NCBI GenBank assembly: GCA_934725105.1
Contig: CAKVBD010000007.1
Coordinates: 7,747-71,746 of the forward strand
Reading direction: 5' to 3'
DNA length: 64,000 nucleotides
Source: an uncultured Bulleidia sp.
GTDB taxonomy: Bacteria > Bacillota_I > Bacilli_A > Erysipelotrichales > Erysipelotrichaceae
Shown here: in pieces, positions 3,350-9,386 of the stretch
Numbering within the stretch: position 1 is the first letter of the stretch
Layout: every line of letters starts with the position of its first letter
Notes under the pieces: generated by a model
Database searches by the model: none
What the model was told of the DNA's origin: nothing
What the model saw: only the letters and a program-made list of their open reading frames with translations
Position numbers and translations under genes: made by a program

Positions 3350-4225
3350 ATGACAAGAGTAGATATCGCAATTATTGGCAGTGGTCCTGCAGGACTAGAA
3401 GCAGCTTTGACTGCGAAAAATAGAAATAAATCCATTCAGATCTTTGGTACAAAAGATTTATCTAACAAGATGCAGGTAATTGATCATCCAATTACAAACT
3501 ATCTTGGTTTATCAAATGTAACTGGAAAACAAATGGCTGAAGCATTTTTGAATCAAATGCATGATGCTGGAATTGAAATTACAGAATCTAAAGTGACAAC
3601 AGTATATGCAATGGGTGAGTATTTTGCATTACAGCTAAGTAACAATGAAATGGTGGAAGCAGAAAGTGTGATCCTGGCAAGTGGTGTTGTTGCGGGAAAA
3701 CCATTCAAGGGAGAAAGTGAATTCCTTGGTAGAGGTGTTTCGTATTGTGCAACATGTGATGCACCATTATATAAAGGAAAAGATGTAATTGTTATTGGTG
3801 GTTCAAAGGAAGAAGAAAGTGAAGCGGAATTCCTTGGAGAAGTATGTAATTCTGTAAAGTATATTCCTTTGTATAAAGGTGAGATTGTATTCAAACATGA
3901 CAATATTGTTGTGGTGAATGAAAAACCTGTTGAGATCAAAGGTATGATGAAAGCAAATACTTTAGTGACGGATCAGAATGAATATTCTACAGATTGTGTG
4001 TTTGTATTAAGAGCGGCACAATTTCCAACACAGTTAGTTCCTGGATTACAGGTAGAAGGTAATGCTGTAAAAGTGGATCGTGAAATGAAAACGAATATTC
4101 CTGGTATCTTTGCAGCTGGCGATATTGTTGGCTTGCCATATCAGTTTATTAAATCTGCTGGTGAAGGAAATATTGCGGCAATCTCTGCAGCTGCATATGT
4201 TGATCAAAAGCTAAGAAACAGATGA
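3350..4225 (+). CDS. thioredoxin reductase-like FAD/NAD(P)-dependent disulfide oxidoreductase
   Basis: N-terminal GSGPAGLEAA dinucleotide fold, redox CATCD motif followed by a VIVIGG second Rossmann motif. 291 aa, shorter than canonical TrxB. Confidence 0.7.
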   Translation: MTRVDIAIIGSGPAGLEAALTAKNRNKSIQIFGTKDLSNKMQVIDHPITNYLGLSNVTGKQMAEAFLNQMHDAGIEITESKVTTVYAMGEYFALQLSNNEMVEAESVILASGVVAGKPFKGESEFLGRGVSYCATCDAPLYKGKDVIVIGGSKEEESEAEFLGEVCNSVKYIPLYKGEIVFKHDNIVVVNEKPVEIKGMMKANTLVTDQNEYSTDCVFVLRAAQFPTQLVPGLQVEGNAVKVDREMKTNIPGIFAAGDIVGLPYQFIKSAGEGNIAAISAAAYVDQKLRNR

Positions 4226-4251
4226 GGTATCCATAATGGATATCTTTTCTT

Positions 4252-4794
4252 TTGAAAAACATAGTTATTGTCAAAGTGACTTTAAATAAATTGTCAATTA
4301 GACTATTACGTTTATGCGTACATCGTTATGGTATTGATGCGATGAGTGCAATGGCACAAGGTTTATTTGCAAGCTTATTGATTGGAACAATCATTAAGAC
4401 ATTAGGGCAGCAGACAGGCATTGATTTCTTGGTAAATGCAGGTACATATGCAAGCAGTGTTGCTGGACCTACAATGGCAGCTTCTATTGGCTATGCATTG
4501 CATGCACCACAGCTTGTATTATTCTCATTGATTGCAGTGGGTGCTTCTGCGAATGAATTAGGTGGCGCAGGTGGACCATTGGCTGTTTACTTGATTGCTA
4601 TCGTTGCAAGTGAAGTTGGAAAGCTTGTTTCAAAAGAAACAAAAGTAGATATTCTAGTCACACCTGCAGTAACAATACTTGTTGGTGTTGGATTAAGTGT
4701 ATTATGTGCACCTGCGATTGGTGCGGCTGCAAGTTCTGTTGGAAATTTAATTATGTGGGCTACAGAATTACAGCCATTCTTGATGGGTATTCTT
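4252..4794 (+). pseudogene. PTS EIIC (PTS_EIIC_2 family) N-terminal fragment
   Basis: MAQGLFASLLIGTII...LVTPAVTILVGVGLS...MGIL matches the N-terminal half of PTS_EIIC_2 permeases. Homology ends at 4794, where the antisense of a transposase gene begins. The C-terminal half resumes at 7621. Confidence 0.7.
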
Positions 4795-4795
4795 T

Positions 4796-5417
4796 TATTT
4801 TTCGGAATCTTGCGGCGTACTTTTCTTTTCAGGTCAAGATTGGTGATAGAAACGCCGGCATCCTGAAATACGCCATCTTCGATATATGTATACAGTGTTC
4901 TTTCGGATACTTTGATTTCCGGATGGTTCTGACAGATGACATAGAGAGACTGTCCCTGTTCCAGAAGAGGCTTGATAAGAAGACCGAGATCTCTGATTTC
5001 ATTGACTGTAGCGTTGACACCGGCACGTGCATCACAGAGCATTTCAACATATTCTTTCTGTGCAGCATCCGCTTCATACTTGTACTTGTCGAACCGGCAG
5101 CGCTTGTATCTTTCGCAGCCGTTGCATGCGCCAGGAGAGCGGTCACGTTTTTTACAGATGAAAGGCTTGAAGGAAGGACATTCCTTAGAACAGTGGTGCG
5201 AATACTTGTTAGGACATTTTCCGGCATCAATGCACTCGACAGGATACTTGGATTTGTAAGAGAGAGTGCGATGATTCCTGATTTCCTTTCCAATTGTAGA
5301 TTTGTCTTTGCCAAGCGTATCAGCGATGGACTTTTTAGAAGAATTATTTTCAATACCGCGTTGAATGATTCTGCGTTCGTCATCAGTTAAATGTAAATTC
5401 TTGTTTGATGTTGCCAT
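4796..5417 (-). mobile_element. IS30-family transposase gene, 3'-truncated (HTH and linker only, no DDE domain)
   Basis: MATSNKNLHLTDDERRIIQRGIENNSSKKSIADTLGKDKSTIGKEIRNHR is an IS30-type HTH. The following YxxxxAxxxY and LLEQGQS...TLYTYI segments match the IS30 transposase linker. The protein stops being transposase-like at about 4796, directly against the PTS fragment, and no GHWEGD-type DDE core is present. RBS AAAGGAAA precedes the ATG at 5417. Confidence 0.6.
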
Positions 5418-5845
5418 AGTATGATTTCCTTTCTGAGAGGCAACACATCCAGCTGAGAAAAATAAAACATTATGAAAGAGTAAAATCAACTGGAAGTTGG
5501 TGAAATAGTAAATTCTATTCTGTGTATACGAAAGTGGAATTTGACTTTTCAGTTCAGCTCTCCAGTATAGGTAGTATTTATAAAAATTCTAGACTTATAA
5601 TGAAAATAAATATCATGTATAACGATTAGAATAGCTCAGGAATATACTCTTACTAAAAGCTAATAATTGGCAAATACTATGTACAATAAATGATATGTAA
5701 AGATATTGATATTGTCATGTTTTATGCTAAACTGCGGTTGTAAACATATATGTTTGTGAGGAGCAAATATGAATTATCAAAATAATGCAAGGTATAAGAA
5801 CGGTGACATTTAGTCTTCCATCAATAATATTTTGAAGGAGATTTT

Positions 5846-6292
5846 ATGTTGAAAAAAATAGTATTCGTTTTAGTAATTCTTCTTCTTCTATCGTCATGTA
5901 GTAAAAACACGAAAATACCTTTGGATCAAAGTACTATTGACAAACTAAATTTGGATGATACATCAGTTCATTTATATGCAATCACTATAGATCAGTTGAC
6001 GAATAGCTCAGATTCTAAAGGTCTTAATGGTTATGTATTACTGTTGAGACCAGATTGTAAAGGGTGTCAAACTTTTGTTACAGAGTTTAATGAATACTCA
6101 TCTTCAAATAAAATAAATTCAGATATTTACGTGCTTGATACTACAATATTAACTGATGAGGAAAAAGAAACATTATTCACTGTGTATTCAGTGACTTCTG
6201 TTCCTTCAATTATGGTGTTTGAAAGTGGCAATTTCATTTCATTAGAAGTGGGAATTTCTTCGAAGGGACAGCTATCAAGTATTCTAAAATAA
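5846..6292 (+). CDS. thioredoxin-fold CxxC lipoprotein, putative thiol-disulfide oxidoreductase
   Basis: Lipoprotein signal with lipobox LLSSC. CKGC motif in a roughly 120-aa Trx-like body. RBS AAGGAG 6 nt upstream. First gene of a tight 3-gene cassette. Confidence 0.6.
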   Translation: MLKKIVFVLVILLLLSSCSKNTKIPLDQSTIDKLNLDDTSVHLYAITIDQLTNSSDSKGLNGYVLLLRPDCKGCQTFVTEFNEYSSSNKINSDIYVLDTTILTDEEKETLFTVYSVTSVPSIMVFESGNFISLEVGISSKGQLSSILK

Positions 6293-6306
6293 TTTGAGGA
6301 AAATCT

Positions 6307-6918
6307 ATGATAAAGAGAATATTTTCTGTAATATTAATTATTACCCTTTCGCTCACTTCTTTTATCCCGATTAGCGCTAAAACTTCTATTTCTTCTGAAA
6401 ATGAATTTAAAGAAATTGTTGAAAAATCTAAATACTATAAAGATTATGCAGATGAAGTTATTCAATATGATGTTTTACGTAAAGTTGAGACAGATGAAGG
6501 TACAAGATTTACCATTGAGTATAATCTCAAAACTGAAGAAGATGAATATGTACGAAACTTGGTTTTTATTGGAGATGAAAATGGTGAATTCCTCGAAGTT
6601 CTACTAACAATTGGCAAAGATGATTTGTTATCGGTTAATGATTTGATTAAGCAACATAAGACTAATATTTATATAGAAACAATAGGGCGCGTCTACCAAT
6701 GTATTAAGTATACATGCAAATCATGGTCATATGATGCGTCGTATCAATCTAGTCCTGGTTGCACTGCTATTGTAGGGAAGCCTTGTGAGATTTTTAGTTT
6801 GATGAAAAAAAAGATTGTTGCTGCTATATGTAAATCAGGAGTTTGGGCAGCGTGTCATTTTAGTGTTGATAAAGTTTGTACTGGTTATTATGAAACGTTT
6901 GATGTGTGTGATTTATGA
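6307..6918 (+). CDS. secreted protein with C-terminal 10-cysteine domain (candidate toxin or bacteriocin-like protein)
   Basis: Sec signal peptide ending ISAKTS, acidic middle region, and 10 Cys in the last 80 residues. No recognisable family. RBS GAGGA upstream. The stop overlaps the next gene as ATGA. Confidence 0.55.
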   Translation: MIKRIFSVILIITLSLTSFIPISAKTSISSENEFKEIVEKSKYYKDYADEVIQYDVLRKVETDEGTRFTIEYNLKTEEDEYVRNLVFIGDENGEFLEVLLTIGKDDLLSVNDLIKQHKTNIYIETIGRVYQCIKYTCKSWSYDASYQSSPGCTAIVGKPCEIFSLMKKKIVAAICKSGVWAACHFSVDKVCTGYYETFDVCDL

Positions 6919-7382
6919 AGAAAGTAAATGTGTTTAAATATACTGGTATTTTTATTGGTGTATTGATTATTACTTTTGTTGTTATGACATATGTATCGGA
7001 ATATATTTATAGCATGATTGGTGCAAGAGTTAACTTTAGCTTATCATTTATTGTTATTGAGTTTGTGAAGTTTGGTATCATTTATGATTTGACATTTGGT
7101 TTATTAACTACACTAATATGTATCTACATGTTCAAGAAATTTGTTGACAAATGTAAACAGAATCATAGTTTGATTTACTACCAACTATTAGAACTAGAGA
7201 AAGAATCTTGGTGTTGTTATGTGGTTGTATTAGTCGCAATACTAGCAGGGTTTATGTTAAAGAATCCAGTATTTATTATCTTTGCAAGTTTAGCTATTGT
7301 AATCTTAAATCCAATTTATAGTGTTATCTTAGTGCTAAAGAAAGATTTAAAGAATTTAGCTGTTTCAAAAGCTGCTAGTTGA
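6915..7382 (+). CDS. small 4-TM integral membrane protein (putative immunity protein)
   Basis: 155 aa with four hydrophobic helices. Translationally coupled to the Cys-rich protein gene. Hairpin TTGAGGT/ACCTCAA follows at 7404-7423. Confidence 0.5.
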   Translation: MKKVNVFKYTGIFIGVLIITFVVMTYVSEYIYSMIGARVNFSLSFIVIEFVKFGIIYDLTFGLLTTLICIYMFKKFVDKCKQNHSLIYYQLLELEKESWCCYVVVLVAILAGFMLKNPVFIIFASLAIVILNPIYSVILVLKKDLKNLAVSKAAS

Positions 7383-7620
7383 AGAAAAATGGTGTTTTAT
7401 AATTGAGGTTTATTTTACCTCAAACAACTTAGATACTTAAATTACATGAAGATCAAATGATCAATGAGTTATGTGAAACTCAACTGATTATTTTGGTCTT
7501 TTAATGAGCTAAAACGGTACTTCTTCAGGTCCTTTACTTATGTTGTAACGTAAGCGTCAAATAAATACCGTCTACAAAAATATCTCCAGTCTAGGATAAT
7601 CATATCCAGAAGGGAGATAT

Positions 7621-8010
7621 TTTATATCTGTACTTGTTGGTATTGCGTTAACACTTCCAATTTCTTCTGCCGCAATCTGTGCTGCACTTGGCTTAACAGG
7701 TTTGGCTGGTGGAGCTGCAGTTGCTGGATGTTGTGCACAAATGATTGGCTTTGCCTGCATGAGCTATAAAGAAAATGGTATTGGAGGTCTTGTATCACAA
7801 GGGATTGGTACAAGTACGCTTCAGATGCCAAATATCATCAAGAATCCGAAAACATAGATTCCGCCAATTCTTGCTTCTGCAATTACAGCGTTTGACTGGA
7901 TTGGATTAGTCATGATCTCTTTTATCTTGCCTGCAGTATTAAGTGTTATCTTCTGTAATATTTTACGTAAGAAACAATGGATCAAAGAAAACGATCTTAA
8001 ATTAAACTAA
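7621..8010 (+). pseudogene. PTS EIIC (PTS_EIIC_2 family) C-terminal fragment with in-frame TAG
   Basis: SVLVGIALTLPISSAAICAALGLTGLAGGAAVAGCCAQ continues the family sequence that stops at 4794. An in-frame TAG at 7855-7857 sits where homologs have W. The frame then continues IPPILASAITA... to the TAA at 8008. Confidence 0.65.
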
Positions 8011-8057
8011 TCAAAAAAGGAACAATTCATTTTTGAAGTGAATGTTCCTTTTTTAGT
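8011..8057. terminator. bidirectional intrinsic terminator
   Basis: AAGGAACAATTCA / TGAATGTTCCTT stem flanked by A-runs and T-runs, between convergent genes. Confidence 0.6.
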
Positions 8058-9386
8058 TTAAAACTGGATTGTTTTTCTAATGATCATGATGGATATGAGT
8101 GATGCAACTGTTTCACTGATCCAGAATGCATGCCATACACCACTTGCTCCTAAGAATCTAGATAATACATAGGATACAGGAATGATGACAATGATATAGC
8201 GAAGTGCTGAAATAACAAGAGATGGATTTCCTTTTCCGAGACCTTCTAATACACCACAAACAATGACAGAAATGGAAGAAATGACAAATCCACTGCTGAT
8301 GATATGTAATGCAGAAGAACCTGCACGGATCGTTTCTGTGTTCTGTGTGAATAAATGCATGAGATCATTTGCAAAAAGCCAGCAGATGCATGTTCCAATA
8401 AACATGATAGAAACTGCAAGTAACAATGAAGTAAAGAAAATCTTTTTCACTCTTTCATGTTCTTTTGCACCATAGTTATATCCAATTAATGGACGAATAC
8501 CTTGTACAATGCCATTGACTGTTAAATAGATAAATGTCTGTAACTTATAGTAGATTCCTAAAACCAGTACATACATGTCTGAGAACTCTGCCAGGATACC
8601 ATTTAATAACGTGATCATAATGGATGGTAGAGAGAGGTTCATTGTTGCTGGCAAGCCAACACTGTAGATTCTTTTACAGATTGTTTTCTGGAACATTTCT
8701 TTTGAAAAATGAATGCGTAGTTGAGATTCTTTTGTGAAATAGATAATCAAATAGATGACAAGTGTAAGTACTTGGCCAATACCTGTTGCTAATGCTGCAC
8801 CAGCAATTCCCATTTCAGGAAAGAAGCCAATACCGAAGATCATCATTGGATCAAGAATAATATTACAGATACATCCACATAGCATCGCAATCATGGAGAC
8901 TGTCATTTTTCCTTCTGCCTGATAGATCTTTTCATAGGCAATGGCAATAGAGTTTGGGAAGTTAAACAGGAATGCAAGTGTTCCATATGTAATGCCATTT
9001 TGAATGACTTCAGGATTTGTTGTGAATAGATGCAGGAATGGACGCAATACGCCAATACATCCAACAGTTAACAGGATACCGTGAATCATGGAAAGAAATA
9101 ATCCTAAGGATACAGTATCGTTTGCTTTTTTCTGATCTTGTGCACCGAGGTAGAAAGATGCAATGGCATTGACGCCAATTCCATGTCCTACGGCAACTGC
9201 AGTCACAATCAGCTGTAAAGGATACACAAGAGAAATGGAAGTCATTGCGCTTTCCGATATCTGTGCGACGAAATAACTATCGACAATGTTATAAAGTGCA
9301 TTGACAAGCATTCCCAATACCATTGGCAATGACATTGTTAATACAAGTGGTAATATCTTTTTTTCTTTCATGTATGTTTGATTCAT
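8058..9386 (-). CDS. MATE family efflux transporter
   Basis: 12-TM protein with the MATE N-terminal pattern LPMVLGMLVNALYNIVDSYFV. Start set at MNQTYM with RBS GGAGGTG. Confidence 0.8.
   Translation of the reverse strand: MNQTYMKEKKILPLVLTMSLPMVLGMLVNALYNIVDSYFVAQISESAMTSISLVYPLQLIVTAVAVGHGIGVNAIASFYLGAQDQKKANDTVSLGLFLSMIHGILLTVGCIGVLRPFLHLFTTNPEVIQNGITYGTLAFLFNFPNSIAIAYEKIYQAEGKMTVSMIAMLCGCICNIILDPMMIFGIGFFPEMGIAGAALATGIGQVLTLVIYLIIYFTKESQLRIHFSKEMFQKTICKRIYSVGLPATMNLSLPSIMITLLNGILAEFSDMYVLVLGIYYKLQTFIYLTVNGIVQGIRPLIGYNYGAKEHERVKKIFFTSLLLAVSIMFIGTCICWLFANDLMHLFTQNTETIRAGSSALHIISSGFVISSISVIVCGVLEGLGKGNPSLVISALRYIIVIIPVSYVLSRFLGASGVWHAFWISETVASLISIMIIRKTIQF

Follow-up and report, generated by a model that had tools for sequence, protein, structure and literature searches.

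The IS30-family composite transposon Tn6330 (ISApl1-mcr-1-ISApl1) decays into an immobilised cassette through deletions attributed to abortive copy-out-paste-in transposition (PMC5821093). Pediocin-type bacteriocin loci encode PedC, an accessory thiol-disulfide oxidoreductase, and an immunity protein (PMC4919988). The IIC and IID components of the mannose phosphotransferase system (PTS) are receptors for class IIa and some class IId bacteriocins (PMC11403280, PMC10783117). Here we compare these systems with a locus in a 64,000-nucleotide stretch of DNA from an uncultured Bulleidia sp. (contig CAKVBD010000007.1, positions 7,747 to 71,746; hereafter the window), where a gene for a PTS EIIC permease is split by a 2,830-bp insert that carries an IS30-family remnant and a three-gene bacteriocin-like cassette. 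We consider it probable, with some reservation, that one ancestral insertion of this already joined mosaic, entering by illegitimate, microhomology-type recombination, killed the EIIC gene and was followed by further decay.

Results

The split gene and its intact orthologs

Positions 4320–4794 and 7625–8010 of the window, both on the plus strand, are two parts of a single PF13303 (PTS_EIIC_2) gene. Against the Pfam profile, which has a gathering score of 28.9 bits, the N-terminal part (codons ~18–175 of the 347-codon ortholog) scored 115.6 bits (E = 3e-33, profile positions 4–166). The C-terminal part, which starts at the second base of codon 176, scored 135.2 bits (E = 4e-39), with its best stretch at profile positions 168–255 and a second stretch in addition. 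The profile was matched from position 4, and the internal gap after position 255 corresponds to a 132-nt deletion described below. The frame of the N-terminal part ends ...ELQPFLMGIL at 4794; that of the C-terminal part starts ...SVLVGIALTLPISSAAICAA at 7627 and reaches its stop codon at 8008–8010.

Intact orthologs of 347 amino acids (P0002–P0004, 97–98% amino acid identity) were found by protein search, and the two fragments abut when aligned with P0003 and P0004 (97% identity). On the ortholog contigs (L001–L003), EIIC has the same neighbours as in the window, namely AsnA, a Pyr_redox_2 protein, MatE and a GntR/aminotransferase regulator; the N-terminal part has 92–96% nucleotide identity to L001 and L003. 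EIIC genes of ~83% identity in metagenome-assembled genomes of uncultured Erysipelotrichaceae were the sole matches of a genome scan. A first reading of the window, made by a model from the letters and open reading frames (ORFs) and called here the sequence-only reading, had taken the two halves for parts of one gene in the same orientation that continue one another. Pfam and the intact orthologs bore this out, with only Val176 missing between the halves. The limits given for the halves were less exact: the first was said to start at 4252, while EIIC sequence occupies 4320–4794 and follows former intergenic DNA (4252–4319), and the second starts at 7625, not at 7621.

The dN/dS of the intact EIIC alleles was 0.035. 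The substitutions specific to the window comprised 19 synonymous and 4 non-synonymous changes, with A134V, M240T and C318S as missense changes. These values imply that most of the divergence arose in functional alleles and that EIIC was inactivated recently. With its start region gone, a 2,830-bp insertion, a TAG at codon 253 and 44 codons deleted, the window copy is not an intact translatable gene and thus not a functional member of PF13303. It is a dead copy of a normally well-conserved PTS EIIC permease gene, and production of EIIC protein from the split gene is impossible.

Between 4566 and 4743, the window-type EIIC N-terminal part has about a dozen variants, mostly at third codon positions, found in neither of the intact alleles and in no other carrier of the insertion. 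This run looks like a tract imported from a more distant functional allele, not like pseudogene drift. In the insertion-free contig L003, codon 5 of the conserved N-terminal extension is TAA (MNTI, stop, SFFERKD...; L003:1041–1112), upstream of the gene called at L003:1113–2084, the protein of which (P0002, a 437-member cluster) is called from Met25. Either this is an independent early knock-out of the EIIC gene or an internal start is used. The EIIC homolog P0001 (465 amino acids) has an internal tandem duplication of ~113 residues, roughly residues 90–203 of the 347-residue form.

Boundaries of the insert

Alignment to the intact orthologs fixed the junctions at 4794/4795 and 7624/7625, with the two gene fragments contiguous; in no intact ortholog did anything but a single Val separate residues 175 and 177. 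The insert (4795–7624, 2,830 bp) lies between codon 175 (CTT) and codon 176 (GTA): where the intact alleles read CTT-G-TATCTG, the window reads CTT, the insert and TATCTG. No target-site duplication is present, and one target base, the G of GTA (Val176), is lost, so the reading frame would still be shifted if the insert were excised exactly. The halves had been said to mark the insertion site precisely; they do mark a single point, but to within 1 nt, given the lost base and the missing duplication. The junctions share only an imperfect 10–11-nt resemblance (TATTCTTTTAT and TATTTTATAT), which we rejected as a decayed target duplication since the same G must mutate in both copies.

Neither an inverted-repeat search nor direct reading found terminal inverted repeats at the insert ends, and no similarity of these ends to the IS30 inverted repeat was found. 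Within the 64-kb window, there was no second IS30 copy and no repeat of the insert. The whole insert had no BLAST match in plasmid and phage collections, and exact-pattern scans of viral contigs for the insert tail and the IS30 end returned nothing. The GC content was ~36% in the flanking genes, 41% in the IS30 remnant overall with a core peak of ~47%, and 29% in 5559–7624. The insert is an already joined mosaic of an IS30-family remnant, a linker, a three-gene bacteriocin-like cassette and an 80-nt tail.

Carriers of the insertion

Widespread in gut metagenomes, the insertion allele was seen with both its junctions in at least 20 independent contigs. Contigs L004–L006 have both junctions and all four lesions of the window gene, with 99.6–99.97% identity to the window. 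The left junction is identical in L016, in L100–L102 and in 13 contigs from a metagenome pattern scan (L103–L115); across L016 and L100–L115, the right junction is identical wherever the contig is long enough. The exact 203-amino-acid protein of the cassette is indexed in 118 sample blocks, and the neighbouring genes were the same in all 24 contigs read. A chimeric contig or base-calling errors might have produced the insertion, the TAG or both, as is generally possible in metagenome-derived sequence. We give this practically no chance, however, as identical junctions and lesions were found in contigs assembled independently from many samples by different pipelines.

Lesions of the gene and their order

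DNA and codon alignments identified four lesions in the window gene: a 5′ deletion, the insertion, a nonsense codon and an in-frame deletion. The sequence-only reading had named the nonsense codon as the sign of continued decay but had missed the two deletions, of 86–89 nt and 132 nt.

The 5′ deletion removed 86–89 nt upstream of 4320, including the Shine-Dalgarno sequence (ribosome-binding site), the ATG and codons 1–17. Its junction is at ~4317–4320, and a short ATCGTT repeat flanks the deleted stretch in the intact alleles. EIIC homology begins at ~4320 (codon 17/18), and the first in-frame ATG is at 4342 (Met25). Alignment with L001, L003, L016 and L100–L102 and a terminator scan assigned 4226–4319 (plus strand) to the former intergenic region and 5′ leader of EIIC, which holds the deletion junction. 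The segment 4252–4319 is read through by the mechanical ORF and is not EIIC coding. A terminator-like hairpin of the upstream Pyr_redox gene was located at 4224–4246. The candidate start "MDIFSFEK" at 4237 was rejected as a remnant of the true N-terminus: it belongs to this hairpin and aligns with intergenic DNA of the intact loci. The region upstream of EIIC is rich in indels among strains (L001:3400–3530; around 4270–4300 in the window). For example, L001 has ~110 extra nucleotides there with a terminator-like hairpin (GGAGACTGCGGGAACAGTCTCC and a T-run), and a 23-nt stretch of the window intergenic region is missing from L003 and L101.

The TAG at 7855–7857 is codon 253, where eight of eight aligned homologs have TGG (Trp), as the sequence-only reading had stated for the family. 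The TAG recurs in the independent assemblies L004–L006, L100 and L110, and so it is inherited and not a sequencing error. The in-frame deletion removed 132 nt (residues 264–307, GPIATC...GKAIT) between the 10-nt direct repeats GCAATTACAG and GCAATTACTG, its junction lying inside the retained 10-mer GCAATTACAG at 7879–7888.

The lesions are distributed unevenly among the carriers. Six contigs (L016, L101, L102, L103, L105 and L111) have the insertion only, with an intact 5′ end, TGG and no 132-nt deletion. L100 has the insertion, the TAG and the 132-nt deletion with an intact 5′ end. All four lesions are present in the window, L004–L006 and L110. The six insertion-only carriers show that the insertion came first and that the nonsense codon and the two deletions came later, as proposed from the window alone. 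The left flank of L100 is 99.3% identical to that of L101, and its right flank is window-like.

The IS30-family remnant

Between the two halves lie a minus-strand HTH_38 ORF and three plus-strand ORFs, in agreement with the IS30 remnant and three-gene cassette of the sequence-only reading. The remnant (4795–5558, minus strand) was assigned by its HTH_38 domain, the NCBIfam IS30 model, protein alignment and the inverted repeat pair of a related copy in contig L017. Its left inverted repeat (IRL) is 28 nt long (5531–5558, outer end 5558). The transposase gene starts at 5417 and keeps its first 209 codons, to 4795, so that coding sequence runs right to the junction. The N-terminal helix-turn-helix is present (PF13936, 42.4 bits against a 27-bit cut-off), while the NCBIfam IS30 model was matched only at positions 9–105 of 267 (21.5 bits against a cut-off of 80), which is not a full-length transposase with the catalytic (DDE) half. 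Neither this half nor the right inverted repeat (IRR) is found in the window. The remnant aligns with the N-terminal halves of 342–365-residue proteins named IS30 family transposase by JGI. In the protein database, its close relatives are all truncated, and the best full-length relatives are only ~42–48% identical.

The related copy in L017 shows the terminal inverted repeat pair of 28 nt (GCTGAACTGAAAAGTyAAATTCCACTTT). There, the IS30 remnant is cut elsewhere, at the position of 4837, by an IS21 IstB fragment. The window matches L017 at 97% over 4837–6270 and at 99.4% over 5544–5700. Gene calls of 276–309 amino acids labelled HTH_38 (window 4587–5417, minus strand; also L004, L016 and L100–L102) are the IS30 fragment fused to the antisense EIIC N-terminal part. 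The IS30 search returned such fusions, which attest the same junction with EIIC; the fusion ORF is an annotation artefact in hundreds of database entries (P0134–P0143).

The locus lacks the two terminal inverted repeats and the 2–3-bp target-site duplication of IS30 elements. We rejected plain IS30 transposition: there is no catalytic domain, no IRR, no inverted repeat at the insert ends and no 2–3-bp duplication, and one base is lost. The truncated end of the remnant coincides with the left junction.

The main rival to our reading is a decayed IS30 composite transposon resembling Tn6330, a possible source, though in our judgement a doubtful one. In this model, an IS30-cassette-IS30 unit, or IS30 and the cassette with a second end, moved into EIIC by transposition and produced a 2–3-bp duplication. 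Abortive transposition then removed the right-hand IS30 almost exactly, the left copy from its IRR to 4795, and the duplicated bases with one extra. The remnant does belong to the IS30 family and is oriented so that the missing IRR would face the EIIC N-terminal part. ISApl1 copies are known to leave Tn6330 by near-exact, end-anchored deletions that yield immobile cassettes (PMC5821093), and the net loss of one nucleotide at an AT-rich target is compatible with a 2–3-bp duplication and a joint shifted by a few bases. The model also accounts for the near-intact target. It needs two separate precise end-anchored deletions, however, and none of at least 20 carrier contigs has more of the IS30, an IRR or a trace of a right-hand copy; no intermediate was seen. 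Tn6330 loses whole IS copies, whereas half an IS remains in the EIIC insert, and the tail end is unlike an IS30 inverted repeat. The truncation of all close relatives of the remnant also speaks against the model, full-length relatives being found only at the low identities given above.

The cassette and its surroundings

The IS30 IRL is followed by a linker (5559–5680), which is joined to the IS30 remnant also in the unrelated context of L017. The cassette block (5681–7544, plus strand) is conserved in other contexts, with 82–95% nucleotide identity to L007–L014. The joined unit of IS30 remnant, linker and cassette is present in L017 too. The insert ends with a tail of 80 nt (7545–7624) that has no counterpart where the cassette occurs elsewhere; the alignments to L010, L012 and L013 break off at 7544.

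All three cassette genes are on the plus strand. The first (5846–6292) encodes a lipoprotein with a CxxC motif (CKGC) and a putative thioredoxin/PedC-like domain. Its thioredoxin matches are weak and below cut-off (Pfam E = 0.003, NCBIfam E = 6e-7); the sequence collection holds a precomputed PF20207 PedC-like annotation for it. The second (6307–6918) encodes a 203-residue secreted protein, the C-terminal part of which has eight conserved cysteines. This protein has no Pfam family, a weak below-cut-off NCBIfam match to the SAR2788 putative-toxin family (E = 0.004) and only about 13 homologs. Its AlphaFold model, built on a 6-sequence alignment, had a pLDDT of 48, too poor for a fold search. 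The third (6915–7382) encodes a 155-residue hydrophobic membrane protein of no family, a candidate immunity protein. Against diverged copies, dN/dS was 0.09–0.27 for the 203-residue protein gene and 0.47–0.71 for the membrane protein gene. This contrast would suit a toxin and a fast-evolving immunity partner, without proving it. The cassette genes look functional and are likely the reason why the insertion allele persists.

On unrelated contigs (L007–L014), the cassette was always beside transposases (IS3, IS66, IS21, ISL3 or IS1595), and the homologous block was bounded at 5681 and at 7470 or 7544. In L013 and L014, a lanthipeptide dehydratase cluster lies upstream of it, and only a small part of the PedC-like gene is present. 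The cassette is a candidate new toxin/immunity module that is repeatedly IS-associated.

The tail ends in a hairpin (arms 7577–7592 and 7608–7623) that stops 1 nt before the junction. The RNA of 7383–7640, the non-coding stretch after the third cassette gene, folds far more stably than shuffled controls (z = -5.3), and a second hairpin (7403–7423) is just 3′ of the stop codon of that gene. An Rfam search of 4000–8300 at E ≤ 1 gave no match, and short-word BLAST of tail and linker against the cassette-bearing loci and L017–L019 gave chance-level matches only. The 13-mer TCTCCAGTATAGG (5559–5571) abuts the outer end of the IS30 IRL and recurs in direct orientation as TCTCCAGTCTAGG (7583–7595) inside the terminal hairpin. 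Chance alone would give about three pairs of this kind in 3.2 kb, but it is curious that this one lies at the IS boundary.

Diversity among carriers

Identity among carriers varied along the locus. It was 99.2–100% in the left junction stretch (4744–4871), 99.2–100% in the linker (5561–5680), 99.4–99.9% in the cassette (5681–7544, pairs of distinct carrier lineages) and 99.0–100% in the tail and right junction (7545–7640). Between carrier lineages, it was 91–98% in the EIIC fragments and neighbouring genes, and the IS30 core (4872–5543) ranged from 92.5 to 99.9% among carriers. The flanks of every carrier are nearer to some insertion-free allele than to other carriers. As the insert and its junctions are 99.4–100% identical among carriers, the data argue, with moderate strength, that the insertion allele arose once and recently and that its flanks, which differ by 2–8%, were later replaced through homologous recombination within the species.

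The IS30 core differs from the rest of the insert, and patching by gene conversion from paralogous remnants is a reasonable explanation. In the carriers, the IS30 haplotypes combine variants of the window, L016 and L017 types in mosaic fashion. L004 is otherwise identical to the window over 8.5 kb but has nine single-nucleotide differences clustered at 4965–5047 (83 nt). The cluster and the mosaic haplotypes suggest such conversion or else a mixing of strains in the assembly. The invariant stretch 4795–4871 overlaps 4795–4836, which is missing from the L017-type paralog. In a metagenome scan, the 25-mer 4799–4823 was fused to the EIIC N-terminal part in 13 of 13 contigs; that it occurs only at the EIIC locus fits a stretch that has no paralog and hence stayed unconverted. 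The same scan served to look for a donor in which the IS30 extends further, but all its matches carried the EIIC junction already described.

Identical junctions on diverged flanks could also be explained if the transposase-less unit 4795–7624 had been mobilised in trans and had repeatedly hit the same EIIC point in different strains. Differences between the carrier flanks begin just beyond the right junction (at 7641 in the L016 type; L111 is L003-like from 7647), and each is closest to an insertion-free allele, as noted. The insert has a terminal hairpin at its right end, and an IS200/IS605-type Y1 transposase gene (PF01797) lies ~6 kb from the locus, beyond AsnA, in L101 (L101:12919–12927). 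We nevertheless hold such site-specific recurrence to be very improbable and the least supported of the routes of entry. The unit has no recombinase or transposase; its left end has no hairpin, inverted repeat or att-like core and is an arbitrary point within the IS30 gene. It was never found at another site, the 25-mer always being fused to EIIC, and the boundaries of the cassette elsewhere (5681 and 7470/7544) are different. L100 shows, moreover, that recombination between carriers occurs.

Discussion

Origin of the insertion allele

We favour the view that a pre-formed fragment was joined into EIIC, and illegitimate, microhomology-type recombination, not IS30 transposition, may have done the joining. 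The left end inside the transposase gene, the lack of terminal inverted repeats and of a 2–3-bp duplication, and the loss of one base point to this kind of joining. The right end of the insert (GATATTTTA followed by TAT) resembles the target (TTCTTG followed by TAT), and CTT would be shared at the left end as well, provided that IS30 continued with a Lys or Arg codon, as it does in relatives. Later, in the window lineage, the 5′ end was deleted at the ATCGTT repeat, TGG became TAG at Trp253 and 132 nt were lost between the repeats GCAATTACAG and GCAATTACTG.

Several observations weigh against this account. No donor molecule that continues past either end of the insert was recovered, so the microhomology at the junctions stays inferred. 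The carrier flank haplotypes already differ 17–22 nt to the right of the junction, an unusually short distance for homologous exchange, and one that insertion on several occasions, into different alleles, would explain too. The IS30 core has diverged as much as the chromosome, and an older insertion with later homogenisation of the cassette keeps some residual standing. L100 may be a recombinant rather than a true intermediate, so that the order of the three later lesions is uncertain. The domain matches behind the function of the cassette are all weak.

Significance of the locus

The pseudogene is of consequence chiefly for annotation, where its two EIIC fragments belong under a single pseudogene entry. 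The locus provides an unusually clean population series, from intact through insertion only to insertion with nonsense codon and deletions. It shows the speed with which a gene under strong constraint (dN/dS 0.035) decays after interruption, and how a small accessory cassette can spread in a gut species whose recombination reshuffles the flanks.

Comparison with known systems

As with the Man-PTS receptors, a PTS membrane component is lost here in a strain that has a bacteriocin-like cassette. PF13303 belongs to another family, however, and a link of the cassette product to EIIC is speculation. Conceivably, but only as an outside chance, the Cys-rich secreted protein might be a bacteriocin-like toxin that needs the PF13303 EIIC for entry or action, so that the insertion destroys the receptor and makes the producer immune. 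If true, this would explain why a near-invariant cassette allele has swept across flanks that differ by 2–8%, and also the early stop in the same gene of the insertion-free L003 type.

The cassette resembles pediocin-type loci in having a CxxC lipoprotein annotated as PedC-like beside a secreted Cys-rich protein and a small membrane protein. In contrast to these loci, it has no ABC transporter/PedD and no double-glycine leader, and the candidate toxin, at 203 residues, has a Sec-type signal and no class II bacteriocin motif.

The likeness to Tn6330 lies in an IS30-family element with a short passenger cassette, in the loss of transposase function and in a cassette that is fixed and >99% identical across backgrounds. 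In Tn6330-type elements, the passenger lies between two IS copies or the remnants of both, whereas the EIIC insert has one truncated copy and a tail (7545–7624) unlike IS30 ends. It keeps half of one IS, with no second copy, no outer inverted-repeat remnants and no 2-bp duplication, and no intact composite ancestor of it was found.

The closest counterparts are insertional pseudogenes in bacteria. The EIIC insert departs from the usual ones in being a 2.8-kb mosaic with no intact IS, the IS30 piece being truncated at a junction where there is no duplication and one base is lost. It is like them in its single point of interruption, in the later direct-repeat deletions and nonsense codon, and in the intact orthologs of sister lineages. 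The locus is thus a well-documented, ordinary insertional pseudogene and a new example of a well-known type.

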